Assembly: GCA_018667855.1 (NCBI GenBank)
Contig: JABIRL010000243.1
Coordinates: forward strand, 3,464-67,463
Direction: 5' to 3'
Source of the DNA: Rhodospirillaceae bacterium
GTDB lineage: Bacteria; Pseudomonadota; Alphaproteobacteria; GCA-2731375
Length of the DNA: 64,000 nucleotides
Shown here: piece by piece, positions 2,564-53,858 of the stretch
Position numbering within the stretch: the first letter of the stretch is position 1
Layout of the letters: each line of letters begins with the position of its first letter
Notes under the pieces: generated by a model
Seen by the model: only the letters and a program-made list of their open reading frames with translations
Told to the model about the DNA's origin: nothing
Database searches by the model: none
Made by a program: the position numbers and the translations under genes

Positions 2564-2857
2564 GGATATTCCTCCTGACCAAACCGACAGCGACGTTAAG
2601 GCGCATGCCCGGTGGGCGCAACGCCAAAGTCCATGGCCGGGGTGGATTCAAGTTCATATGCCCGTCCGCCCAACCTGCACGGGACATGGGCTGCGGATCA
2701 CTTTGCGCCAGCTATATTGCCCGTCGCCTAGGGAACATCGAGCATGTAGCGGCCCTGCTCGTCCTTCCAGCATTTCGCCCCGCAGCTTAGCCTCGGGCGA
2801 GGTGAGCTTGGCGGCGCGGGTCTTGTCGCTGGAATTACTGCCCGGCGCAAGTTGAAC

Positions 2858-4012
2858 TTAGCCGGTAGTGCTATTCGGTTCGGCCAGGAACGCCTTGAAG
2901 CGATCAGCCACCTCTCTTGGCGACAGTGTCGGTCTGCCGAGGCTATCTAGGGAGCCGGGACGAATACGTACATGAATAAGGTGGGGCCCTGGTTTTTCCA
3001 GCGCCGCCACGAAGGCTTTTTCGAAGCCATCGGGATCGTTGGCGAGGGCGGCGCCGGCATAGCCGCAGGACAGAGCGGCACCGGCGAAATCGACGCTTGG
3101 CGATACGGTCGGCTGGCCCCCCGTCGAGTCATGAACGCCATTGTCGAGAATAATGTGGACCAGATTGTCCGGGCCCATCGCGCCGATCGTGGCGAAGGCG
3201 CCCAGCTTCATCAGGGCGGCGCCGTCACCGTCGAGCACGACCACGGGCCGGTCCGAATTCAATGCCACCCCCAGGCCCATCGGTCCCGCGCAGCCCATGG
3301 AGCCGACCTGATAGAGGTGCTGCGGCCGATCGGCGAGGGTGAACAATTCGCGCCCGCACTTGCCGGTGCTCGCCACTATCGCGGCATTATCGGGGACGGC
3401 GGCGAGCACGCGTTCTAAAATCGCGTAGCGGGTCGGCAGCTCCGCCGAGACGGAAAGGTCGGTACGTGTACCGCTCGGTCGCACGGGAGGCGTTGTTTCG
3501 CTCAAGCCGTCATCGTGAACGCTGCCCTTTTCCATGATGAAGGCGAAGGGCAGACGGGTTTCGTTCAGGCTCGCCGACATCGCCGCGATCGCCGGGCCGA
3601 TTTCGTCCGCCGTGGCCGGAAAGGCCATATGGGGGATACGCAGAGTGTCGAGCAGGGCCGGCGTGATCTGACCCATCAGCTCGTGCTGCGGCTCGTCCGC
3701 CAAGCCAGGCTGGCCGCGCCAGGTAACCACCAGCAAGGTTGGAATTTGAAATGGTGCGTTGAGGGAAGTGAGCGGGTTCACCGCGTTGCCGAGACCGGAA
3801 TTTTGGCACATCACCACGGTCTGCCGGCCGGCCAGCCAGGCGCCCGCCGCGATGCCGACCGCCTCGCCCTCGCTCGCCGCCCCGACATAGCGGTTGGCGG
3901 GATCATTGATTACCCGGTTGATCAACGGCGTCAGGTAGGAGCAGGGCACGCCAGTGTAAAAATCAAAACCCTCTTGCCGCGCGGGTCCAAGAAAATCGTC
4001 GGCATTGATCAT
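2858..4012 (-). CDS. ppd: Phosphonopyruvate decarboxylase (TPP-dependent)
   Basis: 384 aa with a split TPP-binding fold (GDG...N motifs) and the length typical of Ppd/AepY. It lies 42 bp downstream of a PEP mutase gene in the same orientation. Confidence 0.8.
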   Translation of the reverse strand: MINADDFLGPARQEGFDFYTGVPCSYLTPLINRVINDPANRYVGAASEGEAVGIAAGAWLAGRQTVVMCQNSGLGNAVNPLTSLNAPFQIPTLLVVTWRGQPGLADEPQHELMGQITPALLDTLRIPHMAFPATADEIGPAIAAMSASLNETRLPFAFIMEKGSVHDDGLSETTPPVRPSGTRTDLSVSAELPTRYAILERVLAAVPDNAAIVASTGKCGRELFTLADRPQHLYQVGSMGCAGPMGLGVALNSDRPVVVLDGDGAALMKLGAFATIGAMGPDNLVHIILDNGVHDSTGGQPTVSPSVDFAGAALSCGYAGAALANDPDGFEKAFVAALEKPGPHLIHVRIRPGSLDSLGRPTLSPREVADRFKAFLAEPNSTTG

Positions 4013-4054: not shown

Positions 4055-5680
4055 TTAGGCATTGAAATTTCCCGCCACGACAACATCCTGTACCGTGTCA
4101 ATATCGAGCCAATGCCCGGTGGTGTAGATGACGCGGATCGTATTGCCATCCTCAACCAACATATTGATCAGATCGGGCATCTTGAATTGCTGCTGCTCCG
4201 GGTTTGACAATAATTCATTCAAGGCGGATTTCATGATCGGAAATCCCTTGGCCGAAACCTTCAAGAATCCCATCCATTCACCGTGAATTTTGGCCTCTGG
4301 AAAATCGTCGCCGAGGCGCTTCAAACTGACATGCGTGGAAAATGTATCTCTTGAGTTCGGATGACTGCAGATGGCCCAATCGGCCTCTCGCCCGGCATTG
4401 CGGCTATTGACCCAATCCGCATCCACGGTGACGACGAAATCTTCCCCGGGTTCTTCCAGCAACGACAAAATATACTTGTTGAAAAGCACATCGCCGTAGG
4501 AAACAACCATGTCCGTACCTAAGTCGCCGAGATGGTCAACCGCCTGCTTTAGCGAGACCAGTTCGCCGGTGCTTTCATGGCGATCATTGTCCACATAGTC
4601 CAGGCCCGGCACATCGACCGCGTGCTTCATGTAACCGCGCACGACGACGAGCTTTTTTATGCCGGCCAAATTGTAGGTTTCGGCGATGTGGGCTAGCAAG
4701 GGCTTGCCGCGAATATCGATCATGACCTTGGGTTTGTCCTCCGTGAGGGCGCCCAGCTCCTTGCCTCTCGAGGCCGCAAGGATCACCGCGCAGGGTGCCT
4801 TTTCCGCCGATGGAAGATATCGCTTTTCAGCTTCCTTGAGCTCTGCTGCCCCTTGCAGGCGGAAAACCTCGTCAACGCCTGCGACATTGTCCTCGATCGA
4901 CAGCAGGTTCCGTTCGGCGTGGATTTGTTTGGCCGTGCGTTGCATGGCCGTAATGGACGCGCGCAGCAAATGATTGGCCCAAATAGCCAAAGAGAAGCCG
5001 GCATCCTCGAATACCTCCGTGGCCGTGGCGTAATATTTGGTCGGCACGATGACCACGGGGCAGCGGTCAGCCCATTCCGTCTTGAAGGCCAGCACTTCGT
5101 CGGCTACCGCCAGGGCGCTGTGGATCAAAATCGCATCGGCGCCTGCCTCATGATAGGCTTCGGCCCGGCGGAGCGCTTCGCCAAGGCCCCAGCCGGCAAT
5201 GAATGCCTCGACGCGCGCGACAATGCTGAAATCGTCATCCAGCTGGGCATCCTTGCCGGCCTTGATCTTGCCGCAAAATTCGTGGATGTCGGCCAGCGGC
5301 TGTGTGTCGCCCGAAATAAAGCTATTGGTTTTCGGAAAAATCTTGTCTTCGATACAGACCGCCGCAATGCCACGCTGCTCCAGCTTGTGGATCAACCGGC
5401 GGAAGTTGTTAAAACTGCCATAGCCGGTATCACCGTCCAGCATGATCGGCACGCTGCTGGCATCCGACATGAATTCCAATGTTTCCAGGACCTGGGTCCA
5501 GGAAGTCTCGTTGTTGTCGCGCACGCCATACTGCGCGGAAATTGTCAGGCCGCTGCCCCAGATGCCCTTGAAGCCCGCTTCCTCGACAATTTTGGCGCTC
5601 AATCCATTGTGTGCCTCACAAATGAATTCAAGCTCTCCCGAGGTTAGTAGCCCGCGAAAAGCGGTGGTCTTTTTCATCAT
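4055..5680 (-). CDS. pepM: Phosphoenolpyruvate phosphomutase (N-terminal) fused to a LicC-like nucleotidyl(cytidylyl)transferase domain (C-terminal)
   Basis: The N-terminal ~290 aa have the ICL/PEPM fold with the PEP-mutase-specific EDK-x5-NS motif ([13 protein letters not shown]). The C-terminal ~240 aa have an NTP-transferase fold ([13 protein letters not shown]...). The gene is ATGA-coupled to phnW upstream. Confidence 0.85.
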
Positions 5681-6852
5681 GTTCCCGTTCTGTTTAAGCT
5701 GCTTGTTTGATTGGTTGCCTTTGATGCCAGATCGTCGATGCCCATCGCTTCCAGCGTTGCCTTGACGGCAGCCAACGCTGCCCGCATTTCCAGCGCGCCC
5801 AGGGCGCCGATACAGCCGATCCGGAAGCTGTCCGCGAGGGCGAGCTTGCCCGGATAGATGACGAAACCGCGGGCGCTTAAATCGTCGTAGAAACGGGTAA
5901 ACTCGAAGCGGCTGTCGGCCGGCATCAGAAAGGTGACGATAATTGGCGCCTGGACGCTATCGGCCAGCAGGGTTTCAAAGCCGAGCTCGCGCATGCCCTG
6001 GACGAGAATATCGCGATTGCCGCCATAGCGGCGATGACGCGCGGCTACGCCGCCTTCCTCCCGGTGTTCGGCGAGGGCCTGGTCGAACGCCGCCAGTACA
6101 TGGGTCGGCGGCGTGAAGCGCCACTGTCCATTGGCTTCCAGACCGCGCCACTGCTCATAAAGATCCAGGGCCAACGAATGGGCATTGCCCTCGGCCAACT
6201 CCAGCCATTGCCTGGCGATCAGCGCGAAGGCGATGCCCGGAACACCTTCGAAGCATTTGTTGGAGGAGGCAATCAGGGCATCGAAGGGCACGCTGTCGCC
6301 ATCGATCGGAATGGCGCCGAAGGCGCTCATCCCGTCAATGATCAGGCGACGCTTATGGGCCTTCGTGACACGGCCAATCGCCACCATGTCGTTCAATATG
6401 CCGGTGGTGGTTTCGCAATGCACGACCACGACATGCTCGATCGCCGCGTCCTCACGCAAGGCCGCGTCCAGGGCCGTTGGATCGACCTGTTGATCCTCCG
6501 GCCAGCGCAACACCGAAACCTGGTGGCCGATCCGCTCCAGTATCGTCACGATGCGCTTGCCATAGGCGCCGTTTTCCAGAACCAGGGTCCGCTGTCCGGG
6601 CGCGATCAGCGTGCCCAGCGTGGCCTCCACGCCAAAAGTGCCACTGCCCTGCACCGGCACCGCGACATGGCTGTCCGCTACCCTTGCGATGTTCAACAAT
6701 CGATCTTGGATGCGCCTGGTGATGGCGATGAAGTCCGTGTCCCTGGAACCCCAATCGCGCAGCATCGCCTGCTTGGTCGCAAGCGATGTCGTCAACGGGC
6801 CCGGGGTCAGGAGATAATTGTCATTTCCACTATCGTTCATGATCAACCGCAT
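5677..6852 (-). CDS. phnW: 2-aminoethylphosphonate:pyruvate aminotransferase
   Basis: 391 aa class V aminotransferase with the PhnW-typical N-terminus ([11 protein letters not shown]). Its 4-bp overlap with the pepM start indicates translational coupling. Confidence 0.85.
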
Positions 6853-7419
6853 GGCGATTGTCAGATCGAGTGTCCATATTCAATACCTCCCCAAAAGGTT
6901 TGTTGTTTTGCCGGGGCGAAATCACGGCTTGAGCACATGAACCGAGCCGACATTTAAATGTCATCAAGGTCTCGCCGTGACTATTGATCACGGCAACGAC
7001 AGAAACATCGAAGTATCCAAGGCAATGGCCACAGAAGACGTAAAGACCATTGTCGTTGACGACGAGTTTGGCGGCGTATTCGGCGATGGTTTGGGCTAAC
7101 TCTTCAACCGCCGAATGAAGGCAGTACGACCCATGGCTCATCCTGCCAACTCTAAGCTGGCAATGGTCATAATGACGACATCGCCAGAAACGCTCGACAA
7201 TCTCAAATTGAATATTTCCCAGCCTATCGGAATACTACCGGCCACGAAATTTCAGGTAACATTTACGTCGAGGGCGATCCTATCCGATTTCCAATAACAT
7301 AGAAACCTTTATCCCGATACTGGCGGTCCAACAGCCGGATACTGGCAACTTTACTGTGTTCGAAAGACCGCCAATTGATGGATTCTATTGAATTTCTATT
7401 CCGCGACAATTTCTTTTCT

Positions 7420-8988
7420 TCACCGCCTTGGCGGACGTTGTTCGACCACGCCGTCTGGCCCGAGCCGTGTGTTGGCCAGGGTCCGTTCATCGTGGTTCAT
7501 GCGCCAGCTGAGCATTTTTTGCGCATAATCAAGGACCAGTCGGTGATAGGCGGGATCGTCGGCGAGATTGTGAAACTCGTGCGGATCGTTTTCCAGATCG
7601 AAAAATAGCGGCGGCAGACCGGTAAAATGGACGTATTTGTAGCGTTTGTCCCAGAGCAGATTGGCGCTGCACTGATCTGGTGTCAGGCCCAGCGTCCGCC
7701 CGCCGTCAAGCCCCGGAAAATGCCGAAAATCGAACGCCGCATGCGCTTCCTCGCGCCAATCTCGGACGTCGGCGCCGTGGCAGAAAGGCAGCAACGAGGC
7801 GCCGTCACAGGCGGCGGGAACCTCAAGACCCAGCCACTCCAGGATCGTCGGCATGAGATCGACATTCTCGCTGAAGGCCTCGATCGCCGTGCCGCGCGCC
7901 TGGTCGGAGGCGGCGCGCGGGTCACGGATGATCAAAGGGATATGGTAGGTCTGTTGGTAGTAGCTGAATTTCGACATCATCCAATGATCGCCCAACTGCT
8001 CGCCATGATCGGAGGTAAAGACGATTAGGGTCCGCTCCCAAGCGCCCGTCTCTTTCAGATGTGCGATCAGGCGTCCGATTTGGTCATCGATCTCCGTTAT
8101 CATGGCGTAGTAGGTCGCCCTGATTTGCCGTATTTCGGCTTCGCCGATGTCAAGGTAATCCTTCAGCAAAGCGCCATGGGTATAGGCTGCATCCAGCTGG
8201 TTCGAGAGATAAAATCGGGTCCATGGATGCTGCTTGGCTTCTTCCTCGGCGCTGGCACGGCGAACGGGCAGCGGCACGTCCGCCGGATCATAGAGGGCAT
8301 GATAGGGTTCGGGCGCGATATACGGGGGATGCGGCGCGTGATAGGAGATGTGGGCGAACCAGGGTGTCGAGGGGCGGTCCGAGATGTAGGCCAACACCTC
8401 ATCGGTTAGAAAGGCCGCGCCGCTGTCTTCCGCCCGGTACCACGTCGGCGCGTAGGTGCGGCCCCGGCTTGGATCGATACCTTCCCGGTTAGGGCGAAAA
8501 AGCGCGCGTGGATCGTCATCGACCTGATACCCCCGCTGTCGCAACGCATTTTTCCATGCCTGGTAGCTGGCATCCATACGGACCACCGGCGTCAACCCCG
8601 GCAACAGTCCGGCCCGCGTCCTGAGCTCGGGGTCTTCCGGGTCCCGGCCGCGCGGGTCGGCGGCGATATCGGTATATCCGAACAGGGCGGGATCATGGCC
8701 CCCCTTGCGGGCCTCGAGCGCGACATTGGCATGGCGGTCGTCCAGCGGCGTGCCGTTCGTCACCGTGCGGTGATTATGCTGATAGAGGCCCGTGTAGAGG
8801 CTGGCGCGTGCCGGCCCACAGGGCGTGGACTGGGAATAGTGGTGGCGAAACAGGGTGCCCATCGCCGCCAGCGCGTCCAGATGCGGCGTCTTCACGATCG
8901 CATGGCCCTGGGCGGAGAGGCATTCGCCCCGCCACTGATCCGCTGTGATAAAAAGTACGTTTTCCACCGTCTTGCCCGTCGTTGTCAT
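7420..8988 (-). CDS. Sulfatase-family (alkaline-phosphatase superfamily) hydrolase, Cys-type formylglycine motif, no signal peptide; arylsulfatase / phosphonate-monoester-hydrolase-like
   Basis: 522 aa. Residues 10-20 (LFITADQ) begin the sulfatase fold directly, with no signal peptide or TM. The C-x-P-x-R signature (TPCGPARASLYTG) and downstream SDHG metal ligands are present. Confidence 0.8.
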   Translation of the reverse strand: MTTTGKTVENVLFITADQWRGECLSAQGHAIVKTPHLDALAAMGTLFRHHYSQSTPCGPARASLYTGLYQHNHRTVTNGTPLDDRHANVALEARKGGHDPALFGYTDIAADPRGRDPEDPELRTRAGLLPGLTPVVRMDASYQAWKNALRQRGYQVDDDPRALFRPNREGIDPSRGRTYAPTWYRAEDSGAAFLTDEVLAYISDRPSTPWFAHISYHAPHPPYIAPEPYHALYDPADVPLPVRRASAEEEAKQHPWTRFYLSNQLDAAYTHGALLKDYLDIGEAEIRQIRATYYAMITEIDDQIGRLIAHLKETGAWERTLIVFTSDHGEQLGDHWMMSKFSYYQQTYHIPLIIRDPRAASDQARGTAIEAFSENVDLMPTILEWLGLEVPAACDGASLLPFCHGADVRDWREEAHAAFDFRHFPGLDGGRTLGLTPDQCSANLLWDKRYKYVHFTGLPPLFFDLENDPHEFHNLADDPAYHRLVLDYAQKMLSWRMNHDERTLANTRLGPDGVVEQRPPRR

Positions 8989-9008: not shown

Positions 9009-10307
9009 CTACTGTAGGTCGGCTTGCTGTCTGGTTTCAGCCGCCGCCGGGTCGAGGTAGGTATATTCAACGTCTTTAAATTCACCATAAAGGACACGCA
9101 AATATGCCTCTGGATCATGGGGACAGTCGAAGGTGCCGCCGAGGAAGTCAATTGTCGATGTCGGCAGGACGATCTCTTGCGGCACACCATAGCCGCCGCT
9201 TTCTGTCACTGCCATGGCACCCTTGTGGCTTTGCCTTTCCAGCACCGTTTCACCGTGACTGATAGCCTTTCGGTAAAGTGCCACATCAACCCGGATTTCG
9301 CCGCGAAGACGATAGCGCTCCCAGCGAAAGAGCCATGATTTCGGCGCATCGAAGGAGATCGATATGAGATTTTTCCGTTCGAAAAGATCAATGAAGAAGC
9401 CATCCCGCCTACAGCGTTTGCTGAGCCCGGCGGACAACCTATCCCAACTCATCTCGGCGTCCAGCAGAACCGATATATCGATATCGTCCTTCCAGTCCAG
9501 AAGCGTGCCATTCTCCCGTACGGCACCAAGCAGGCTGCCGCCCTCCAACCAGTACACCGCCCCCATATCGCGCAGGCGGTCGGCGACGTAGTGGCAGATT
9601 TCCCGCATATGTTCGCGGCAGCAGGGCGCGGTGTTGAGGCCAAGACGGTTGACGTAAAGGTTGAAGGGACAGGGCGGCGTATTTTTGCTGCAGCCCCTCC
9701 AACTGACGTTGTCCCCGGACAGCACCAGTTCGCGGATGCCGTGGCGCCGACGGAAGGCCTCTAGATCACCGCCCGCCTGGGTCTCCAGGACCGCCAAATC
9801 GCTATCGTTGAAGGAATGGAGCCGCCGTCGCCGGCCGGCCAAGTGCTGGCGCAAGGACCACGACATTTCAATCATCATGGCGGCCGCCAGCATCGCCTGC
9901 AGCTTGAGGTTCGGCACCGCCAAGCCGGCTGCCAGCGCTGGTGCGAGCAACCACAAGCCTGCATGCTCGGCGTGTTTGGCCAGGAATTCCACCCCTCGAT
10001 TGGCCGGACGGAAGGCAATTCCCGGGGCCGCGACAATGGCAAATATGACAATGATGAAGGCAGCCGATACCGCCAGGCCGATTATGTCCAGACCGATTGT
10101 GTCCAGATCATGGCCCGACAGCGACACCCAGGCCAGGGTAAGGGCCACGAGAAACCCTGTCGTTGCCACGGCAGAGGGGCCAAGCGCGACCCAGTTCCGC
10201 GGAAAGCGCAGGAGGCGAACGAAGGATAGATATGCCGCCACGTAAAGGCCGGCGGCAATCAGCCCGGCGAAAAACTGGGTGACTGCTGAGGCTTCAAAAC
10301 CGGTCAT
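9009..10307 (-). CDS. licD: LicD-family phosphotransferase with N-terminal polytopic membrane domain
   Basis: The C-terminal domain carries the LicD/fukutin motif (VYWLEGGSLLGAVRENGTLLDWKDDIDISV). The N-terminal ~150 aa form 4-6 predicted hydrophobic helices. I prefer the start MTGFEAS at 10307, ATGA-coupled to the upstream NTase. The longer track ORF, which would begin at 10472, has a basic low-complexity 55-aa extension that overlaps the upstream gene. Confidence 0.7.
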   Translation of the reverse strand: MTGFEASAVTQFFAGLIAAGLYVAAYLSFVRLLRFPRNWVALGPSAVATTGFLVALTLAWVSLSGHDLDTIGLDIIGLAVSAAFIIVIFAIVAAPGIAFRPANRGVEFLAKHAEHAGLWLLAPALAAGLAVPNLKLQAMLAAAMMIEMSWSLRQHLAGRRRRLHSFNDSDLAVLETQAGGDLEAFRRRHGIRELVLSGDNVSWRGCSKNTPPCPFNLYVNRLGLNTAPCCREHMREICHYVADRLRDMGAVYWLEGGSLLGAVRENGTLLDWKDDIDISVLLDAEMSWDRLSAGLSKRCRRDGFFIDLFERKNLISISFDAPKSWLFRWERYRLRGEIRVDVALYRKAISHGETVLERQSHKGAMAVTESGGYGVPQEIVLPTSTIDFLGGTFDCPHDPEAYLRVLYGEFKDVEYTYLDPAAAETRQQADLQ

Positions 10308-11143
10308 AAGTCTTGTGCCGCACCTTTGTTGATGTCCTTTGTGCTCACGGTTGTATCGCGGCTTTTCGTTGCCGCCGGTGCGTCGTGCCGGCGACCCGCG
10401 TTCAGCGCGATACGCGGCAGGATTTCGGTTTCGGCGCGCGCGACATCGGCGGCGAAATCGATCTCGATCCAAGGCAACCCGGTGATGTCCTCAAAAGCGA
10501 ATGCGCCCCGTGGTGAGGTCAGCAGCACATCGCGGATCGTCTCCTCGTAGGGCTCGTGGCGGCGGCCTTGGTCCAGATAGAGAGCGGTCTGGGCGATAAT
10601 CAACTGGGCCGCATCGCTGGATAACTTGAACATACCCACGGATTCACCGCAGAAATCGAACCCGGTGCTCAACCATTTGCGGAATTCGACAATCTCGCCG
10701 TCCCGCACACATATCTTGACAGGTTCATCGCCCGGCTCGAAGTCACGATCGAGGAGCAGGCAGTTCCGATGGGGCGAGTTCATCAGACGTTGCAGCAGCT
10801 CTTGGTCATAGAGAATATCGGCATCCATGAGCAGCACCGGGCCGTCGCAACGCAGTTCGTCGCGCACTGTCCACAAGGTGACGATATTGCCCTCCCGATA
10901 ATCCTCATTGAATACCACCCGCACGAAATCCTGCGCGCCCAGGGCCATGATCTCTCGCTCGATTTCCTGGTATTTGTAACCGACGCCCAGCACCAATTCA
11001 TCGATGCCCTGTTGCCTGAGAATTTCGAGGTGATATTCCAGCAACGATTTACCACCGAAGCGCAATAGAACCTTCGGCGGTGGTTCCGTGATACTGGATC
11101 CGAGCCGGGCGCCGATCCCGGCCGCCAACATGACTGCCTTCAT
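10304..11143 (-). CDS. LicC-like sugar-phosphate/phospho-base cytidylyltransferase (stand-alone)
   Basis: 279 aa with an N-terminal MKAVMLAAGIGARLG P-loop-like NTP-transferase signature and overall LicC/PntC-like architecture. Confidence 0.8.
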   Translation of the reverse strand: MKAVMLAAGIGARLGSSITEPPPKVLLRFGGKSLLEYHLEILRQQGIDELVLGVGYKYQEIEREIMALGAQDFVRVVFNEDYREGNIVTLWTVRDELRCDGPVLLMDADILYDQELLQRLMNSPHRNCLLLDRDFEPGDEPVKICVRDGEIVEFRKWLSTGFDFCGESVGMFKLSSDAAQLIIAQTALYLDQGRRHEPYEETIRDVLLTSPRGAFAFEDITGLPWIEIDFAADVARAETEILPRIALNAGRRHDAPAATKSRDTTVSTKDINKGAAQDL

Positions 11144-11234: not shown

Positions 11235-12104
11235 CTAGACTGGTGACCAACTCGCATGGCGCGCCAGGTTGCGCAGAATTTCGGCTTCAGGGCCAAGCCG
11301 GTCGAGACAGGACAGCGCCATCTCCTGATACCGCTGGGCCTGGATTTTCGTATCCCCGACACCAAAGAAATGGATGGCGGTACGCTTGCCGACATCGTTA
11401 CCCGGTAGCTTGCCGACTTCACCAAGACCCGCTTCCACGTCAGCGACATCATCGAGATACTGGTACGACAGCCCGAGGTTCATGCAGGCTTCATAGACGG
11501 CCGTGCGATCTTCCTCGCCGGCGCCGCAAAAAGTCGCGCCGACCCGCGCGGCCGAGGCGTAGAGGGCGCCGCTTTTCCGTCGGTAGCATTCAAGCATCGT
11601 CGCTTGTTCGTCACCACTTGTCGGCTGAGATAAATCGATCTCCTGACCCTCGATCATCAATAGAGCGGCGTTGCTCATCTCGATCGCCCCTGCCAGCCGC
11701 CGCTCGGGCGTCACGGATGGATTGTCGAGCACCGCTCGATAAGCCGTATTGATCAGGTACATCGGCGCCAGATGGACGGCCCATGCCGGGTAAACAATGT
11801 GGGCGCTGGGCTTCCCGCGCCGGTAGTCTGCATCATCCATCGACGGCAAATCGTCCAGTATCAATGACGCCCCGTGCGCCATCTCGACCCCGCAGGCAAG
11901 CGACATACAAATCGTCACGGCATCCCGGTCAAAGATGTTTCCCGCCGCGATGGCCACCATGGCGCGCCAGCGGTGTCCGCCTCCCAACACACCGTATTTG
12001 GCGGTGCGGCAGACTTCCGTGTCGTCCTGCGCCGAGAGAATCTCATCAAGGCGCTGCTCAACGGATTGTCGTACGCGCGTCTTGAAGTCCTCGAATGTGT
12101 TCAT
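11235..12104 (-). CDS. trans-Polyprenyl diphosphate synthase (FPP/GGPP synthase family)
   Basis: 289 aa with the first (LILDDLPSMDDADYRRGKP) and second (YQYLDDVADV) aspartate-rich motifs. Confidence 0.8.
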   Translation of the reverse strand: MNTFEDFKTRVRQSVEQRLDEILSAQDDTEVCRTAKYGVLGGGHRWRAMVAIAAGNIFDRDAVTICMSLACGVEMAHGASLILDDLPSMDDADYRRGKPSAHIVYPAWAVHLAPMYLINTAYRAVLDNPSVTPERRLAGAIEMSNAALLMIEGQEIDLSQPTSGDEQATMLECYRRKSGALYASAARVGATFCGAGEEDRTAVYEACMNLGLSYQYLDDVADVEAGLGEVGKLPGNDVGKRTAIHFFGVGDTKIQAQRYQEMALSCLDRLGPEAEILRNLARHASWSPV

Positions 12105-16534: not shown

Positions 16535-17328
16535 TCACGATTTACGGGAACGAAGGTACCGGTCCCAAAGGTCCGGCCGCCGCGCCCTGGTCAATTCCTC
16601 GGCCCGCTCTAAACGCCAGGCCTTGATCTTCTCATGGTGACCGGAGGTCAAAACCTCCGGCACCTCCCGCCCTTCCCAAATCTGGGGCCGGGTATATTGG
16701 GGATATTCCAATAACCCGTGGGCAAAACTTTCTTCCTCCAGCGCCGCGCTGTCACCGATTACGCCGGGTAACAGCCGCACCACCGCATCCAACAATACCA
16801 GCGCCGCGGTTTCGCCTCCCGACAGCACATAATCGCCGATGCTGACTTCCTCGATCCCGCGCCCCTCCAGGGCCCGTTGATCGACCCCTTCGAAACGCCC
16901 GCAAACCAGAACAAGGCCGTCCTGTTCCGACAATTCCCGCGCCAAAGCCTGGTCCAACCGTCGCCCCCGGGGGCTCAGGTAAATGACCCGATTATTCGTC
17001 GCGTCCGTTCCCGTCGTGCCCGCAACCGTCGTGCCCGCAACCGTCGCGCCCGCAACCGTCGCGCCGGCACTGACATGATCCACTGCATCGGCCAAGATAT
17101 CGGGCCGCATGACCATGCCGGGGCCGCCGCCAAATGGGGCATCGTCCACGGAGCGGTGTTTATCGCGCGCAAAGTTGCGAATGTCTACCGTTTCCAGCCG
17201 CCAAATGCCGTTTTTTAGGGCTTTTCCGGCCAAACTTTGCCCCAAGGGGCCCGGAAACATCTCCGGAAACAGTGTCAGGACCGTCGCAACCCAGGTTTTC
17301 TCCTCATTTGTTCCTGGCATGGTCGCCA
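16535..17328 (-). CDS. trmD: tRNA (guanine37-N1)-methyltransferase, with in-frame ATVAG pentapeptide-repeat insertion
   Basis: The TLFPEMF N-terminal block and SPOUT C-terminal blocks ([20 protein letters not shown]) are present. Start is either 17320 or 17328. The track ORF start at 17389 would run 86 bp into rimM. Confidence 0.8.
17012..17071. repeat. 15-bp x4 tandem repeat (CGTCGTGCCCGCAAC) inside trmD, in frame (ATVAG x4)
   Basis: Read directly from the sequence. Confidence 0.7.
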
Positions 17329-17888
17329 TCTTCTTCGCCGTCATCGTCGCCGTCATCGTCGCCGTCATCGTCGCCGTCATCGTCGTCATTGCCGGGATCG
17401 TTTATCACAATGCGTCCGTTTGCCATGTCGACTTGCGGTACCGCTTCCCGATCAAACGGCACCATGATGGTTTCGTTTGAGGCGCCCAGTTGAATTTCCA
17501 ACAAGTCGCCGGCGCCGAAATCGTGCATCGCCTTGATCCGGCCAAAGGCCGTACCATCGGGTAATTCAACCGCCAGACCGATCAGATCGGCATGGTAATA
17601 TTCGTCTTCCTCCGCAGGCAATTCAGGCAGGACACCGCGTTCAACGTAAAGCTTGGTGCCTCTCAAATTCTCCGCGTCATTACGATTACCGATACCGGGC
17701 ACCGCCGCCAATATTCCGCCCTTTGTCGGCCCCCGCAAGGATAGCTCCACCACTTTACCGGTTCCGTCGCGCAACGAACCGTAGGCGATGATATCTTCCG
17801 GCGCCTCGGTGAAACTACGTATCTTCACCAGGCCCTTGATGCCGTGGGCGGCGACAATCTCGCCCAGTAACAGGCGTTCGTCAGCCAT
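17304..17888 (-). CDS. rimM: Ribosome maturation factor RimM, with acidic DDDG-repeat C-terminal tail
   Basis: RimM N-terminal ([18 protein letters not shown]) and PRC barrel. The tail is encoded by a 12-bp x4 tandem repeat at about 17335..17390. Confidence 0.85.
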
Positions 17889-17915: not shown

Positions 17916-18443
17916 CTAGTCTTTCGCCGCGTCTTCGGGGGTGTCTTCAGCGGCATCTTCGGCTGCGGCTTCCTCGGCCGGTGCCTCTTCAGCTGTTTCT
18001 TCGGCAGGGGCTTCTTCTACGGCTTCTTCTATTGCAGCTTCTTCGACAGGCGCTTCCTCGGCCGGTGCTTCCTCGGCCGGAGCCTCGGCTTCAGCCTTCG
18101 CAGATTCCGCGGCTTCCGCGGCGGCGGCCATACGTTCCTGGGCCTTGGCCTTGGGTTTGGCTTTTTCCGGATTGTTGCGCTGCGCCGGCATGGGGATGAT
18201 TTCCGCCGTGCCGAGGAACCGCGCCACCCGGTCCGTGGGCTTGGCGCCCTTGTCCAGCCAATAGCGGATGCGCTCTTCCTTCAGATCGACCCGGTTTTCG
18301 TTGTCCTTGGCCAGCAAGGGATCATAGGTGCCCAGACGCTCGATATAGCGGCCGTCCCGGGGCATGCGGCTGTCCGCCACCACAATACGATAGTGCGGCC
18401 GCTTTTTTGCCCCGCCGCGGGCCAGTCTGATTTTCAATGACAT
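17916..18443 (-). CDS. rpsP: 30S ribosomal protein S16 with long Ala/Glu-rich C-terminal extension
   Basis: [33 protein letters not shown]16 core, followed by about 75 aa of (A/E/P)-rich low complexity. Confidence 0.85.
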
Positions 18444-30417: not shown

Positions 30418-31302
30418 TCATTCAGGTGTATTTTTCGGCCAACGATTATGCGGCCAAAGCCATTGCTCCGGGCGCGCCCTGATCCAGTCTTCCATCAAAT
30501 CATTGACCTGTCCCATCAGGGCCGTGATATCGGCGGTTTGATCGTTGCCGGTGGCATAGACCATGGGTTCGTGGATGGTGACACGGAAAGCAGCTCCCCC
30601 GAGTCGTTCGCAACGTACTGGAATGACGGGCAAATTACGACGCAAGGCCAATTGCGCCAGGGCTGGCGCGGTCATGGCGGGGTGGCCGAAAAACGTTACC
30701 TCGATGCCGTCATTCATTTTCTGGTCGACCAGCATGCCGACAGTTTCGCCCTTATTGAGGGCGGCGAGGATGCCCCGCGCGGCGGAAGCCCCCTTGGCCA
30801 GAGCGCCGAGGGATGAACCTTCCCGCACATGCCACAGCCATTGGTCGATCAGCGGATTGTTTGCGGCGCGATAGACCACATGCATGGGCCGGCCCAGCTT
30901 GGCCGTAACCAGATACATCAATTCCCAATTGGCCAGGTGGCCGCCAAACAGCAGCGAACCCTCCCGGCCTTCCAGATTGGCGGTGCCGATAACCTGTATT
31001 TGGCCCGCCCGCGGGGGCTGGTCGGTCAAGGTGAAATCCGGCAGATGCGGCAGTTCGGCGATTGTGCGGCCCAAATTCCGCCAGACACCGGCCCTGATGG
31101 CGGCGCGTTCACGGGGTTTCAGATCGGGCATGGCCAGGATCAGATTTCGTTCAACCCGGCGCGCCAAAATCGGCAAAAGGCCGATCGCCGTACCCAGGGC
31201 TGCCCCCACGTTCGAGGCGGCGGCTATGGGCAGAGCCGTCAACAAGGCCCAAAAGCACCGTGCCAGACAATATTCCAGGCGATAGCGGATCGGATGCTTC
31301 AT
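30418..31302 (-). CDS. Lipid A biosynthesis (Kdo)2-lipid IVA acyltransferase (LpxL/HtrB family)
   Basis: 294 aa with one N-terminal TM and an LPLAT fold. It sits immediately downstream of lpxK and waaA. Confidence 0.7.
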   Translation of the reverse strand: MKHPIRYRLEYCLARCFWALLTALPIAAASNVGAALGTAIGLLPILARRVERNLILAMPDLKPRERAAIRAGVWRNLGRTIAELPHLPDFTLTDQPPRAGQIQVIGTANLEGREGSLLFGGHLANWELMYLVTAKLGRPMHVVYRAANNPLIDQWLWHVREGSSLGALAKGASAARGILAALNKGETVGMLVDQKMNDGIEVTFFGHPAMTAPALAQLALRRNLPVIPVRCERLGGAAFRVTIHEPMVYATGNDQTADITALMGQVNDLMEDWIRARPEQWLWPHNRWPKNTPE

Positions 31303-32300
31303 GGCGCCTTATTCGCACCCCTGTCCGCAAGGACCATGTCCAACAGTTTGTCTAGTCTCTCCTCGTCATCGAATTCCAAAGTGACGTCGATCACCGTCAC
31401 CATATCCCTGGCACCGGGGGGCAGGCGCACCGCATCCTTGGCCGTGGTCACGGCAATGGCATTCCGCTCGCGGGCCGCCTCGATCACCGCCCAGATTTCG
31501 TCCTCGCGGAAAGGATGATGATCGGGAAATGCTTGTTGGCCTACCAGTTCCGCGCCCAGTTCCCGCACGGTATGAAAAAAGCGCTCCGGTCGACCGATCC
31601 CGGCGAAGGCGACAACGGGCTGTCCCCGCAAAGCCAGGGCGTCCGGGCCCGGTATCAAACGAGCCGTCAAGGGCGCCGCCGCCATATGGGGCAAGGGTGC
31701 CGGTGCCTCGCCCGATTGCAGGATGATCACGGCATCGGCCCGAGCCAGACCGGTGGCGGCGGTTTCGCGCAAGGGGCCGGCGGGATGCACCCGGCCGTTG
31801 CCCAGGCCATAGGCGCCGTCGATCACCAGCAGGGAGAGATCCTTGGCCAGGCCCGGATTTTGAAAGCCATCATCCATGATGATGGCCTGGGCGCCGGCAG
31901 CGATGGCGGCACGGGCGCCCCGGACGCGGTCACGGGCAATCCAGGCCGGCGCGGCGGCGGCCAGCAACAGGGGTTCGTCGCCCACATCGCCGGCATCATG
32001 TACCTTACCGTCGACCCGTATCGGGCCCGATAGGCGGCCGCCATGGCCTCGACTAAGGAAATGCGCCGCGATCCCCCGCCGCGCCAAGGCCCGACCGATG
32101 GCCAGCGCGGTCGGCGTCTTGCCGGCACCGCCGGCGACCAGATTGCCGACACAGATCACCGGCACCGGCCCCTGCCAAGGTTGGCTCAGCGCCCAGCGCA
32201 GACGGCCCAGGCCCGCGTAAAGCCAGGCCATGGGTTGCAGAACCCGGGCCAGGACGCCATCCTGGTGCCAGAATTCAGGCGTTCGCATCGCCCGACCCAT
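31299..32300 (-). CDS. lpxK: Tetraacyldisaccharide 4'-kinase
   Basis: PVICVGNLVAGGAGKTP P-loop typical of LpxK. Confidence 0.8.
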   Translation of the reverse strand: MGRAMRTPEFWHQDGVLARVLQPMAWLYAGLGRLRWALSQPWQGPVPVICVGNLVAGGAGKTPTALAIGRALARRGIAAHFLSRGHGGRLSGPIRVDGKVHDAGDVGDEPLLLAAAAPAWIARDRVRGARAAIAAGAQAIIMDDGFQNPGLAKDLSLLVIDGAYGLGNGRVHPAGPLRETAATGLARADAVIILQSGEAPAPLPHMAAAPLTARLIPGPDALALRGQPVVAFAGIGRPERFFHTVRELGAELVGQQAFPDHHPFREDEIWAVIEAARERNAIAVTTAKDAVRLPPGARDMVTVIDVTLEFDDEERLDKLLDMVLADRGANKAP

Positions 32301-33606
32301 GTTCCATCGGCGGCTGATCCGTCGGCGGCTGATCCGGCGGCGGTTGACCCGGCAGCAGGGGTGCGAGCTGCTTCAAAACAGCCCTGACCACATCGTGGCC
32401 ATCATCGGCTGCCAACACAGCAGCCTTGGCCCGGCGCGCAACCTCCGCTTCATCGCGCAACAACAGGGCGATCTGGTTACCCAGACTGTTCCCGTCGGTG
32501 ACCAGGGCGGCGCCACCGGTCATGGTCATGGCCGCCGCCTGTTCGGTAAAATTGAACATATGCGGTCCGAACAACAGCGCCGAGTCCAGGCGCGCGGCTT
32601 CAAGGGGGTTTTGCCCGCCATGTTCAACCAATGACCCGCCGATAAAAACAATGGACGCCAGGCGATAGTACAAGCCCATTTCGCCCATGCTGTCGCCCAG
32701 ATAGATATCCGTCTCCGCGCCGATCGGCTGATCCAGGCTGCGCCGGGCCACGGTAAGCCCCAGACCCGCCAATTCCGCCGCGATGGCCTCTCCGCGTTCG
32801 GCATGGCGGGGCACCAACAGCGTGACAAGACCGGGGAATTGCTTGGCCAGCCGTCGGTGGACCACACCGACCGTGATTTCCTCGCCGGGATGGGTGGACG
32901 CCGCCAGCCACCGGGGCCGCCGGGCCATGGCGGTGTTCAATATATGCAAATCCCTGGGATCAACCGGCAATGGCGCCGATGCGGCCTTCAGATTACCATG
33001 GAAGGCCACGTTATGGGCGCCCAAGGTCGCCAGGCGGCCGGCGTCGGGTGCGCTCTGTGCAATGCAGAATTGAAACGACTGCAGCAAGGGTTTTATCACC
33101 GAGGGCAGGCGCCGCCAGCGTCGGAAAGATTTTTCAGACATGCGGGCGTTGATCAACGCCATGGGGGTGCCGCGCCCCTTTGATTGGTGGATCAGGTTGG
33201 GCCAAAGTTCGGATTCCACCCAAAGGGCAAGGTTCGGCCGCCAGTGTTCCAGAAAGGCCGCTACGGCGGCGGGTTGGTCAATGGGGATATATTGATGCAG
33301 GGCCCGGGCCGGCATTCGGTCGGCAATGATCCGAGCCGATGTCACGGTGCCCGAGGTCAGCAATACGTGCAATTCCGGATCCTGATGCAAAAGCCGCTCA
33401 ACCAATGGCAGCACGGATATCATTTCACCGACCGAGGCGCCATGCACCCATATCAGCATGCCTTGCGGGCGCTCCCGCCCCGGCTGGCCCAGCCGCTCGC
33501 CAAATCGCAGGGGATCTTCCTTGCCCCGGCGCAGACGGCGCCGCAGAAACCAGACCAGCAATGGCCCGAATAGGGTCGTCAAGCCGCGATACAGCCGATA
33601 AGTCAT
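32275..33606 (-). CDS. waaA: 3-deoxy-D-manno-octulosonic acid (Kdo) transferase
   Basis: WVHGASVGE N-terminal motif and a GT30 fold. The C-terminal tail carries P/Q/D-rich imperfect repeats. Confidence 0.8.
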   Translation of the reverse strand: MTYRLYRGLTTLFGPLLVWFLRRRLRRGKEDPLRFGERLGQPGRERPQGMLIWVHGASVGEMISVLPLVERLLHQDPELHVLLTSGTVTSARIIADRMPARALHQYIPIDQPAAVAAFLEHWRPNLALWVESELWPNLIHQSKGRGTPMALINARMSEKSFRRWRRLPSVIKPLLQSFQFCIAQSAPDAGRLATLGAHNVAFHGNLKAASAPLPVDPRDLHILNTAMARRPRWLAASTHPGEEITVGVVHRRLAKQFPGLVTLLVPRHAERGEAIAAELAGLGLTVARRSLDQPIGAETDIYLGDSMGEMGLYYRLASIVFIGGSLVEHGGQNPLEAARLDSALLFGPHMFNFTEQAAAMTMTGGAALVTDGNSLGNQIALLLRDEAEVARRAKAAVLAADDGHDVVRAVLKQLAPLLPGQPPPDQPPTDQPPMEHGSGDANA

Positions 33607-34319
33607 GGCGCCGCCCCGGCCAGTTGATCGGCCTGCTCGGTAACCCTATCCAGCGCGGCCTCGACCTGGAGGCGGGCGGCCTCTTGCCCTTGGTCATCAA
33701 GCTTGCGTTGGATATTGATCGGCTCGCCGAATATCATCGCGCCCCTGGAAAACGGCAGGGCAAAACGAAAACTGTCCCAGCTTCGAAACAGTCGAAATCG
33801 TGCCGTGCAGATTGTCACCGGTATGATCGGCGCGCCGGACAATCGTGCCAAGGTTATGACCCCGGCGCTGAGCTGCCGGGCCGGGCCGCGCGGACCATCG
33901 GGGGTCAGGCCAATGGTATGCCCCGCCTTTAACAGCGTCAGCATCTGACGCAGGGCAGCGGCCCCACCCTTGTCGCGATCTCGATCCTGGCGGTGGGTCG
34001 ACCCGCGCACCATGATCATGCCGAAATGAGCCAATGTGCGCGCCACTAACTCACCATCCCCGTGCCGGGATACCAGCAAATGCAAAGGTTTCCGGCCGGT
34101 CCAGCCGGCCGGGATCATCATCAAGCTGCTGTGCCAGGTAATCGTGATGACGCCGCGCCCTTGGGCCAGGGTGTCGGGAATGATCCGGCCGTTGGAAACC
34201 TGCCATCGGGTGGTTCGGATAACCAGGCGGATATAGTGGGCTATCAGATAACCAATGATGGCCTGACCACGAGAGCTGCCCAGAATTCGTTTGCTCCACG
34301 ACCGTCTGTCCACAGCCAC
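33603..34319 (-). CDS. DUF374 / lysophospholipid-acyltransferase-like protein commonly linked to waaA
   Basis: 238 aa. Its 4-bp overlap with the waaA start indicates translational coupling. Confidence 0.55.
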   Translation of the reverse strand: MAVDRRSWSKRILGSSRGQAIIGYLIAHYIRLVIRTTRWQVSNGRIIPDTLAQGRGVITITWHSSLMMIPAGWTGRKPLHLLVSRHGDGELVARTLAHFGMIMVRGSTHRQDRDRDKGGAAALRQMLTLLKAGHTIGLTPDGPRGPARQLSAGVITLARLSGAPIIPVTICTARFRLFRSWDSFRFALPFSRGAMIFGEPINIQRKLDDQGQEAARLQVEAALDRVTEQADQLAGAAP

Positions 34320-34324
34320 CGATG

Positions 34325-36244
34325 TCAGCTCCCAAGCCGTGCGGCGACTTCGTTTTCCGGGTTTTCGCGGTCGGCATCCCGTTCAAGATCGGCGAACTGC
34401 AGCTTGTACAGGTGGGCGTAACTGCCGCCCTCAGCCAAAAGACTGTCGTGATTGCCACTTTCCACGATACGACCGTTGTCCAGCACATATATCCGGTCCG
34501 CCGACATGACGGTGGATAAACGATGGGCAATAACAAGGGTGGTGCGGCCCGCCTTCAAGGCATCCAGCGCGGCCTGGACCTCTCGCTCGGCCTCGCTGTC
34601 CAGGGCCGAGGTTGCCTCGTCCAACAGCAGGATCGGGGCATTTTTCAGCATGGCTCGGGCGATGGCGATACGCTGGCGCTGGCCGCCCGACAGGCGGACG
34701 CCATTTTCCCCAACCATTGTGTCATAGCCTTGGGGCAGGGCGGTAATGAAGGTATCGGCCGCCGCCACCCGGGCCGCGGCGGTAATTTCGTCCCGGCTGG
34801 CGCCGGGCCTGCCATAGGCGATATTGGCCGCCACCGTGTCGTCGAACAATGTGATGTCCTGGCTGACCAGGGCCGTGGCGGCGCGTAGAGACGCCATGGT
34901 GACATCGCGGATATCCTGGCCATCGATCTCGATCCGGCCGCCGGTCGGGTCATAGAACCGGGGCAGCAGGTTCATCAACGTGGTCTTGCCTGATCCCGAC
35001 GGTCCCACAAGGGCGACGGTCGTGCCGGGTTCCACTTGCAGGTCGACGCCATGCAAGGCGGCTGTTTCCTTATCGTATGAAAATTTTACGTCAGAATAGG
35101 AAATGCCGCCGCGATCCGCTTGCAAAGCCACCGCCTCCGGATGATCAACAATGGTGGGCGCCACATCCAGTATGGCGAATATCCGCTGGGCCGCCGCCAG
35201 GCCTTCCTGTAGGGCTGTGTTCAGGTTGGCCAGCCCCTTCAGCGGTTGATAGGCCATTAACAGCGCCGCCAGGAATGACATGAATTCACCCAGGGATAAA
35301 GCGCCGGTCTGGGCCCGCCAGCCGCCATAGAAAATCGCCGCCGCTATGGCAACTCCGCCCAGGGCCTCGGTCAACGGCGTGGCGGCGGAGCGGGTTCGGA
35401 TGCCGCGCATGATTTCGGCTAGGCGCCGTTCTATGCGGGCCCGGATGCGTTCGGTTTCGCCCGCCTCCATGCCATAGGCCTTGACCAGGCGCACCCCTTC
35501 CAGAGTTTCGCTCAACTGGCTGGCCAGCTTGCCTGTTTCCTCCTGTGTGGCGGTGGAAACATTGCGCATGCGCTTGCCGAGTTTGCGGATCAGGACGCCG
35601 ACCAGGGGAAAAATCAACACCACAACCAGGGCCAGCTGCCAGTCCTGTATGAACATTACCGCGCCCAATGCCAACGCGGTCAGGGCATCCTTGGCGATAC
35701 CCGTGATGGCGCGCCCAACGGCATCACGCAGCAAATTGGCGTCGTACAGGAATGACGACAGCAGCTCGCCCGAATGGATCGACTGCAGGTAGGCAAGGTC
35801 GGCGCCAATCAGATGGCGATACATCTTAACCTGGGTCTCGGCGATAATGCGCTGGCCGACACCGTGCATGAGGATACTTTGCAGATAGGTCGCGCCGCCG
35901 CGCAGACAGGCGACCACCACCAGCACCACAGGTACCAGGATCAACATGCCCGGTACCTGATCGACAAAGACCTTATCGATGGCCGGTTCCAGCAACCAGG
36001 CGTTCAGGCCCGTGGTCGCGGCGACAAGGGCCATGAACAATGCGGCCCAGGCAAGCCGTCCGGCGTGCGGCCGGACGTACTCCCGCAACAGCCGCAGCAT
36101 CAGCCGATGGCTCTGTTGCGCCGCGGGCGCACCAATAGCTTCTGCCGCAGGCGCACCAATAGCTTCTGCCGCAGGCGCACCCGCCTGTTGCGCCGCTGCT
36201 GCGTCAGCCTGTCGGTCCACTTGGTTGGTTGCGGTCAAATCCAT
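34325..36244 (-). CDS. msbA: ABC transporter permease/ATPase, MsbA-like lipid A flippase
   Basis: 6-TM domain plus NBD (GPSGSGKTT, LSGGQRQRIAIARA, LLDEATSALD). The N-terminal extension contains a 24-bp x2 tandem duplication (APAAEAIG x2). The true start may be the internal MLRLLREY. Confidence 0.8.
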   Translation of the reverse strand: MDLTATNQVDRQADAAAAQQAGAPAAEAIGAPAAEAIGAPAAQQSHRLMLRLLREYVRPHAGRLAWAALFMALVAATTGLNAWLLEPAIDKVFVDQVPGMLILVPVVLVVVACLRGGATYLQSILMHGVGQRIIAETQVKMYRHLIGADLAYLQSIHSGELLSSFLYDANLLRDAVGRAITGIAKDALTALALGAVMFIQDWQLALVVVLIFPLVGVLIRKLGKRMRNVSTATQEETGKLASQLSETLEGVRLVKAYGMEAGETERIRARIERRLAEIMRGIRTRSAATPLTEALGGVAIAAAIFYGGWRAQTGALSLGEFMSFLAALLMAYQPLKGLANLNTALQEGLAAAQRIFAILDVAPTIVDHPEAVALQADRGGISYSDVKFSYDKETAALHGVDLQVEPGTTVALVGPSGSGKTTLMNLLPRFYDPTGGRIEIDGQDIRDVTMASLRAATALVSQDITLFDDTVAANIAYGRPGASRDEITAAARVAAADTFITALPQGYDTMVGENGVRLSGGQRQRIAIARAMLKNAPILLLDEATSALDSEAEREVQAALDALKAGRTTLVIAHRLSTVMSADRIYVLDNGRIVESGNHDSLLAEGGSYAHLYKLQFADLERDADRENPENEVAARLGS

Positions 36245-52459: not shown

Positions 52460-52565
52460 GGGTCCGGCACCCCTACAATATGAACTTGAATTGAGACTAA
52501 ATGTGAATTCGTCGAAATGCGGCGGCCGGATCAGTCCGGCCGCCGCAAATCATGATGACGACTTC

Positions 52566-53726: not shown

Positions 53727-53858
53727 TGTACTCCCCTGAATTTTCAATGCGGCGTAGATGCCGCTGTCACCGATGATTTTTGTTTTTCAAAGGAATTCTG
53801 GAGCAATTCGGTGCCGCTGACAATAGAAGAGCCGAAAAGGGCAATCGCGGCGTCGAAA

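Follow-up and report, generated by a model that had tools for sequence, protein, structure and literature searches.

The gene considered here lies in a stretch of 64,000 nucleotides (the window) on contig JABIRL010000243.1 of a Rhodospirillaceae bacterium, beside genes for making and attaching aminoethylphosphonate (AEP). Judged from its sequence, it encodes a cytoplasmic member of the phosphonate monoester hydrolase (PMH)/phosphodiesterase family, SulfAtlas S1_0, of the kind called 'D-PMH'. As a textbook case of enzyme promiscuity, PMHs have been the subject of in vitro work since 1996/2008. The gene and its signature are:

7420-8988, minus strand: gene for a predicted PMH-type (D-PMH) formylglycine hydrolase, 522 amino acids, cytoplasmic (Pfam Sulfatase and SGSH_C, NCBIfam PehA, PDB matches, AlphaFold2 (AF2) model)
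8788-8826, minus strand: formylglycine (fGly) signature TPCGPARASLYTG, residues 55-67, with Cys57 as the predicted formylglycine precursor

The open reading frame (ORF) begins with ATG and runs for 522 residues. ORFs were listed from the first start codon after a stop, so a longer N-terminus is excluded. Pfam Sulfatase (PF00884) covers residues 10-387 (E = 3.8e-48; 164.8 bits, cut-off 25), in agreement with the original prediction, made from the letters alone, that the fold begins at about residue 10. SGSH_C matches residues 333-494, and Pfam Phosphodiest gives a weak match (2.1e-12). Cys57 stands in a C-x-P-x-R context and aligns with C57-x-P-x-R61 of the Rhizobium leguminosarum enzyme (RlPMH); the downstream L-T-G of the maturation motif is also present (C57-G-P-A-R61-A-S-L-Y-T-G67). 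The Cys-type signature had thus been read correctly. Kyte-Doolittle hydropathy over 19 residues peaks at 1.11 in the whole protein, and the N-terminus, MTTTGKTVENVLF, lacks hydrophobic stretches. The protein therefore has neither a signal peptide nor a transmembrane (TM) segment, and a cytoplasmic location, as first proposed, is borne out.

The best four PDB matches are all four crystallised PMHs, aligned over their full length at 41-48% identity: those of R. leguminosarum (2vqr, 3e-149), B. caryophylli (2w8s, 3e-144), A. radiobacter (4uph, 3e-138) and S. pomeroyi (4upk, 6e-114). Dimeric arylsulfatases follow at 1e-73 and the remaining sulfatases at 1e-43 or worse; in bit scores the PMHs reach 385-501 and no sulfatase exceeds 249. 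The top NCBIfam model is PehA (NF045661, 'phosphoric/sulfuric ester hydrolase'), which scores 602.9 bits over positions 3-505 of 506, below its equivalog cut-off of 900 bits, and the protein is by this measure a PehA homologue, not an equivalog. The NCBIfam arylsulfatase model scores 246 bits against a cut-off of 481, and the choline-sulfatase model is far under its own cut-off. The AF2 model (pLDDT 75, pTM 0.83) has query-normalised template modelling values of 0.83-0.84 against PMH crystal structures and 0.77 against dimeric arylsulfatases, and its first six Foldseek matches are all PMH entries. In PMHs, a C-terminal beta-hairpin tail mediates tetramerisation (PMC5870055). The model places strands at 507-510 and 513-516 in the C-terminal tail, with pLDDT below 50 there, and the sequence alignment to the RlPMH tail reaches residue 517.

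The active site can be compared residue by residue. D17, Q18, N78, H220, D327, H328 and K340 align with D12, Q13, N78, H218, D324, H325 and K337 of RlPMH, and C57, R61 and Y105 also occupy RlPMH catalytic positions, on a residue list that we take, in part, to be that of Jonas 2008 and van Loo 2010; Asp107 stands where RlPMH has Thr107. PMHs differ from related arylsulfatases at exactly two active-site positions: Tyr replaces a Lys (LysA), and either Asp (in most) or Thr (in the most proficient) replaces the general-base His (HisA) (PMC5488252). The window protein has Tyr105 at the LysA position and Asp107 at the HisA position, and is classed as a D-PMH for this reason; it lacks the His and Lys that are needed at these positions in arylsulfatases of the PAS or dimeric SpAS1/2 type. 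Together with the PDB ranking and the structural comparison, these two residues uphold an assignment to the PMH branch, which SulfAtlas places in subfamily S1_0, rather than to the true sulfatases. A true sulfatase, acting on aryl- or alkyl-sulfate esters and present in the locus by chance, might be suspected from the Sulfatase and SGSH_C matches, from the CxPxR motif and from the label 'arylsulfatase A-like enzyme' on close relatives, and PMHs have a weak promiscuous sulfatase activity (PMC5488252). This label and the other one in public use for them, 'alkaline phosphatase family protein', are uninformative, however, and the replacement of both HisA and LysA, the bit scores and the low scores with the two sulfatase models make this reading highly improbable.

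Among the characterised enzymes, the 'T-PMHs' RlPMH (2vqr/9gve) and BcPMH PehA (2w8s) have the same length and fold as the window protein and are 45-48% identical to it from end to end. They share with it the fGly motif, the metal ligands, Gln18, Asn78, Tyr105, His220, Lys340, the lack of a signal peptide and perhaps the C-terminal beta-hairpin tail, which is predicted at pLDDT <50 in the window protein. The window PMH differs from them in having Asp rather than Thr at 107, in lacking a 4+1-residue insertion after the first strand, in falling under the PehA equivalog cut-off and in its genomic setting; we know of no reported link of RlPMH or BcPMH to ppm or LicD genes. The A. radiobacter (4uph) and S. 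pomeroyi (4upk) enzymes, which are 'D-PMHs', have in common with it Asp at HisA and an N-terminal architecture without the insertion, at 41-44% identity. The window PMH is set apart from these two by its membership of a separate clade of marine alphaproteobacterial PMHs. Bootstrapping of a neighbour-joining tree gives this clade 100% support, and gives 13% to the position of the characterised PMHs with respect to the marine radiation.

Activity in this family depends on maturation of the cysteine. A Pfam scan of the ~60 ORFs that cover the window found neither an FGE-sulfatase (PF03781) nor a radical SAM match, which confirms the earlier remark that no gene for a formylglycine-generating enzyme (FGE) or an anaerobic sulfatase-maturating enzyme lies nearby. 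No FGE-like motif was seen in 160 related loci either, by a heuristic motif expression, so that this is weak negative evidence only. In E. coli, the fGly of PMHs is formed by an unidentified endogenous enzyme, often incompletely, and co-expression of FGE improves the yield (PMC5870055). Since E. coli matures PMHs with an enzyme of its own, the absence of an FGE gene beside a PMH gene is normal for the family and says little.

The neighbours of the gene, in the order in which they would be transcribed, are:

10304-11143, minus strand: stand-alone MobA-like nucleotidyltransferase (NT), upstream of the LicD-like gene (Pfam/NCBIfam)
9009-10307, minus strand: membrane-anchored LicD/FKRP-like phospho(no)transferase, 432 amino acids (Pfam LicD 34.8 bits, cut-off 22.6)
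6853-7419, minus sense: conserved non-coding leader of the AEP operon, 567 nt (76-84% DNA identity over 460-586 nt)
5677-6852, minus strand: AEP-pyruvate transaminase (AEPT/PhnW type; NF010006 511.7 bits, cut-off 296)
4055-5680, minus strand: phosphoenolpyruvate (PEP) mutase-NT fusion (Ppm-PntC type; TIGR02320 380 bits, cut-off 319.55; PF12804 on residues 298-420)
2858-4012, minus strand: phosphonopyruvate decarboxylase (Ppd; TIGR03297 445 bits, cut-off 312.5)

The stop codon of the stand-alone NT overlaps the start of the LicD-like gene as ATGA, and the PMH starts 20 nt after the stop of the LicD-like gene. Alignment to 6 orthologues set the start of the LicD-like protein, which carries at its N-terminus at least three TM segments and, after them, an RRRR cluster. 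In its catalytic domain it resembles fukutin-related protein (6kaj, 3.7e-14), a CDP-ribitol phosphotransferase, and the match includes the CC zinc-finger region and the GGSLLGAVR...DxD motif. Since the nucleotide conjugate that serves as donor is cytoplasmic, the catalytic domain should face the cytoplasm, which is the compartment of the PMH. Between the stand-alone NT and the NT domain of the Ppm fusion, identity is only 29%. The fusion carries the Ppm motif EDKxxxxxNS at residues 111-120, and Ppd and AEPT exceed their cut-offs; with the NT and the LicD-family transferase, the locus has the parts of a cluster for AEP biosynthesis and tailoring. The original prediction had placed the hydrolase in a phosphonate locus, and it does lie in one, as AEPT, Ppm-PntC and Ppd all score over curated cut-offs. 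A set of Ppm-PntC, Ppd, AEPT and a LicD-like gene makes up the 'phosphonyl tailoring' architecture, in which this type of fusion has been described (Rice et al., 2019, PMC6697681). By Pfam and NCBIfam, the window PMH adjoins neither an importer nor a Pho-type gene, and a scan for promoters and terminators gave matches that do not exceed the shuffled expectation.

Two further candidates for membership of the cluster were rejected. The polyprenyl synthase at 11235-12104 and the AKR/SDR genes at 669-2563 have no homologue beside the cassette in any related locus. The former is a short-chain polyprenyl diphosphate synthase (FPP/GGPP type, under equivalog cut-offs) that lies 91 nt upstream of the NT on the same strand.

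How far the PMH belongs with its neighbours was judged from related loci, 80 from a scan of species-representative genomes and 80 further ones from a metagenome scan seeded with the LicD-like protein; they are referred to here by L numbers. In 19 of the 80 genome loci the PMH is 72-91% identical to the window gene, and all 19 come from uncultured marine Alphaproteobacteria. The full order NT-LicD-PMH-(leader)-AEPT-Ppm-NT-Ppd is found in L001, L003, L004 and L007, and is kept as far as the contig extends in L002, L005, L006 and L012. The cassette thus occurs in at least eight species of these bacteria, and the genes that flank it differ in every species; it therefore travels as one block. The order is repeated on nine further metagenome contigs. 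Conservation of the PMH inside the cassette (81-91% amino acid identity, with ~94-95% identity at first and second codon positions) matches that of the core enzymes, compared with 63-84% for LicD.

The partnership is closest with the NT-LicD pair. An NT lies upstream of the LicD-like gene in 56 of the 65 metagenome loci with room upstream and forms with it a constant core, and a PMH follows LicD directly in 9 of the 53 NT-LicD loci with room downstream. Other arrangements bring the same genes together: L139 has a 79%-identical PMH that diverges from NT-LicD; the PMH of L008 (81% identical) diverges from a LicD paralogue of 41% identity; and in L122, LicD and a PMH from a different lineage (54% identity) converge. 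Genes linked to LicD also occur in both subclades of the marine clade of the tree. The data support a link between the PMH and the phosphonate locus that is more than chance. The link to phosphonate metabolism that had been proposed for the gene therefore stands in part: the cassette recurs among different flanks, while it is the NT-LicD pair, and not Ppm, that keeps closest and most often to the PMH. The PMH truly belongs to an NT-LicD module, though as an accessory part, and in this lineage the module is joined to AEP genes.

Two other kinds of gene recur around this module. A class-III aminotransferase lies between PMH and AEPT in L003:12096-13364, L085:13409-14677 and L086:4778-6124, and also beside NT-LicD in L108, L114, L137, L141 and L144; the count made in the analysis is seven loci. 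No NCBIfam equivalog fits it, and PbfA is one of many proteins to which it is weakly similar. The window has neither this gene nor a relic of it. A UgpC-type ABC ATPase (NF008653, 538 bits, cut-off 432) lies within a few kb of NT-LicD in L101, L127, L136, L138 and L139; in L139, at 2779-3939, it is in the gene run upstream of the divergent PMH.

A model can be proposed to explain what a hydrolase might do in such a module. The specificity of the family is for phosphonate monoesters and phosphodiesters, and BcPMH was reportedly found, by Dotson and colleagues in 1996, through its hydrolysis of a glycerol phosphonate ester. By analogy with the family, a maturase whose gene lies elsewhere in the genome would oxidise Cys57 to formylglycine, and the hydrated aldehyde would lie next to a divalent metal held by Asp17, Asp327 and His328. 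The hydrate would attack at phosphorus, in either a phosphonate monoester, R-O-P(O)(O-)-C, or a phosphodiester; R-OH would depart as the alcohol, aided by His220 and Lys340, and collapse of the hemiacetal intermediate would free the phosphonate. Because of this hemiacetal-collapse chemistry, the enzyme should be an obligate hydrolase and not a transferase. The gene context suggests where its substrate may come from. AEP made by the adjacent AEPT, Ppm-PntC and Ppd genes would be activated as CMP-AEP, and the NT and LicD-like enzyme, probably co-transcribed with the PMH, would attach it to a membrane-associated hydroxyl on the cytoplasmic face. The PMH may then cleave the AEP esters that the LicD-like enzyme makes, or fragments that arise when they break down, and the freed AEP might be re-activated by the nucleotidyltransferases (salvage or turnover) or the decoration simply be removed (remodelling). 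That the window PMH hydrolyses or recycles AEP esters tied to the LicD-like product, in salvage, turnover or removal of the decoration, is the interpretation we prefer, at a confidence that falls somewhat short of even.

A pair of this kind has a functional parallel in Streptococcus pneumoniae, where the phosphorylcholine esterase Pce/CbpE removes the head group set by LicD-type transferases and so remodels the decoration. Pce/CbpE has a metallo-beta-lactamase fold, is extracellular and acts on phosphocholine diesters. Its relation to the window PMH is one of analogy of function only, as the folds are unrelated and it is not a family relative.

Several observations weigh against our interpretation. 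The PMH is absent from 44 of the 53 NT-LicD loci with room downstream, and in L109 and L141 NT-LicD lies beside Ppd-Ppm-AEPT with no PMH, which together indicate that the PMH is dispensable for the pathway. No conserved substitute hydrolase was found downstream of LicD in the loci that lack it, where the neighbours are variable. Of the 19 marine-clade PMHs in genome loci, 9 have neither a LicD nor a phosphonate gene within 10 kb. A transferase and a hydrolase for one bond, in one operon and one compartment, amount to a futile cycle unless their substrates differ. On the side of the enzyme, the score falls short of the PehA equivalog cut-off, the window holds no maturase gene, and D-type PMHs are less proficient than T-type PMHs on model phosphonate esters (PMC5488252). 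The settings of more distant relatives also count here. In about half of 61 loci whose PMH is 50-59% identical to the window protein, an ABC importer of the Opp or Pot type adjoins the PMH, and in 12 a Na/Pi cotransporter-PhoU gene lies directly downstream of it. The features concerned lie ~70-800 nt after the PMH gene in L022, L025, L026, L029, L031, L037, L039, L040, L042, L044, L050 and L052, and upstream of it in L021, L024, L030, L032, L048, L067, L076 and L078. The recurrence of an arrangement to import, hydrolyse and handle phosphate hints at a scavenging role for the wider family.

These relatives give rise to the most serious alternative, that the window PMH scavenges phosphorus in general, as an esterase that splits phosphodiesters and phosphonate esters, whether imported or internal, to supply P metabolism. 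It would then have no particular link to what LicD makes and would be in the cassette through shared regulation or hitch-hiking. The importers and Na/Pi cotransporter-PhoU genes of the distant loci, the marine-clade genes with no LicD or phosphonate neighbour and the many NT-LicD loci without a PMH are what it would lead one to expect. Against it stand the 20-nt gap to the LicD-like gene, the persistence of the cassette as a unit at different genomic locations, the adjacency of PMH and LicD in four arrangements, one of which involves another PMH lineage, and the lack of an adjoining importer or Pho-type gene in the window. We consider it unlikely on balance, but not strongly so. The glycerophosphodiester phosphodiesterases UgpQ/GlpQ, which cleave in the cytoplasm organophosphorus esters brought in by an adjacent ABC importer, are functional analogues of the 50-59% relatives; their fold and chemistry differ, and no importer adjoins the window gene.

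One distant locus touches on AEP. In a metagenome-assembled genome of the Acetobacteraceae (L072:2202-8744), a PMH-like gene (53% identity) lies 3 kb from LysR, PhnW and a HAD hydrolase in the PhnX position; this PhnW is 61% identical to the window AEPT, and a choline/ethanolamine-kinase-like gene lies in between. The LysR-PhnW-PhnX genes are AEP catabolic genes. Taken together, the contexts suggest that the general role of the PMH family is cytoplasmic cleavage of organophosphorus esters, which would be imported in the distant loci and made or recycled by the cell's own tailoring pathway in the lineage of the window.

Two other explanations turn on the nucleotidyltransferases. In the first, the PMH is a biosynthetic 'uncovering' phosphodiesterase: the NT would make a CDP-X, LicD would transfer P-X, and the hydrolase would remove X or trim a diester intermediate, so that a modified phosphoryl group would result from the three genes acting together. 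PMHs do act on phosphodiesters in addition to phosphonate monoesters, the low identity of the stand-alone NT to the PntC domain leaves room for it to activate another substrate, and most NT-LicD pairs have no ppm nearby. Most NT-LicD modules also have no hydrolase, however, so that the step cannot be obligatory; an AEP ester has only one P-O ester bond, and the literature searched offered no bacterial precedent. Both the uncovering step and the joint installation of a modified group by the three genes seem improbable to us. In the second explanation, the PMH would hydrolyse a nucleotide-activated donor (CMP-AEP or a CDP-alcohol), and so control the donor pool or destroy wrongly activated compounds. 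The original prediction had suggested CMP-AEP as a substrate, and two nucleotidyltransferases are encoded near the PMH; nucleotide pyrophosphatases (NPPs) belong to the alkaline phosphatase superfamily, and the weak Phosphodiest match recalls them. CMP-AEP is, however, a phosphonate-phosphate anhydride and not an ester, no data here point to it, and the closest relatives of the protein are PMHs and not NPPs. To our knowledge, no fGly enzyme prefers anhydride substrates such as CMP-AEP. The suggestion is not upheld, and we regard a donor hydrolase as very improbable.

The preferred interpretation, cleavage of AEP esters tied to the LicD-like product, may be set beside what has been described. 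The Pnt AEP clusters (PMC6697681; Li et al., 2022, PMC8942020) have the same core of a Ppm-PF12804 fusion, Ppd, AEPT, a second NT and a LicD-family transferase. The surveys (PMC6697681, PMC8942020) give no soluble PMH-type hydrolase as a cluster member; 'sulfatases' are named for Selenomonas clusters, with no further description. The LicD-like enzyme of the window is unlike those of the surveyed clusters in combining an N-terminal multi-TM anchor with an FKRP-like zinc-finger catalytic domain. Our literature search found no paper that names both phosphonate monoester hydrolase and phosphoenolpyruvate mutase, and for LicD, PntC or CMP-AEP with sulfatases it found only the surveys of the Horsman group. 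The genomic association of PMH, LicD and AEP genes therefore appears to be unreported, and the protein itself joins a known family. It is possible, although on present evidence we rather doubt it, that NT, membrane LicD/FKRP-like transferase and PMH form a portable module of marine Alphaproteobacteria that attaches a phosphonate by an ester bond and detaches or salvages it.

The position of a PMH beside a LicD-type transferase and AEP genes offers a testable candidate for a natural PMH substrate and role, namely AEP esters and their recycling or remodelling. If the portable module is real, the physiological substrates that have long been sought for the PMH (S1_0) family would be natural AEP esters (head groups of phosphonoglycans or phosphonolipids, or fragments of them), and the class of enzyme that frees ester-linked phosphonates in marine organic matter before the C-P bond is cleaved would have a name. 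Much marine phosphonate is ester-linked (PMC5649143), and Sosa et al. (2017) speculated that a PEH, a much more distant one, might free phosphonates from marine polysaccharides. For the marine phosphorus cycle, a natural phosphonate esterase would be of consequence if confirmed. Should the link prove circumstantial, the gene has nothing unusual about it and belongs to a large family that is poorly annotated and that databases mislabel as 'arylsulfatase A-like'.

Between the PMH and AEPT lies the conserved leader. The 567-nt gap is AT-rich (GC 0.47 against 0.60 for the window), and it is 76-84% identical among loci whose synonymous sites are 46-80% identical. Its counterparts are at L001:4515-5131, L003:11555-12138 and L141:17596-18107, and it is kept upstream of the AEP operon even in loci that lack the PMH. 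A 103-amino-acid ORF at 6830-7141 was rejected as a gene: it has no Pfam match, its homologues contain in-frame stops, and substitutions show no codon periodicity. As to a structured RNA or riboswitch, the leader has no Rfam match even at E<=1, and the RNAalifold covariation term of +1.6, calculated from six close sequences, gives no support for covariation. The element may be a long 5' leader or a regulatory region of the AEP operon.

Other features of the window stand apart from the cassette. In-frame tandem repeats with periods of 12, 15 and 30 occur within housekeeping genes at 16997-17069, 17318-17385 and 17950-18080; trmD has an N-terminal MTATMTAT... run and an internal AGATV repeat, rimM an Asp-rich tail, and rpsP an Ala/Glu-rich C-terminal extension. 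A lipid A/Kdo cluster (lipid A acyltransferase, lpxK, Kdo transferase, DUF374 and an msbA-like ABC exporter) occupies 30418-36244, ~20 kb from the phosphonate cassette. At 50432-55808, two large DctM-family permeases (675 and 649 amino acids) surround an NMT1/TAXI-type binding protein, in what looks like a duplicated TAXI-TRAP transporter.

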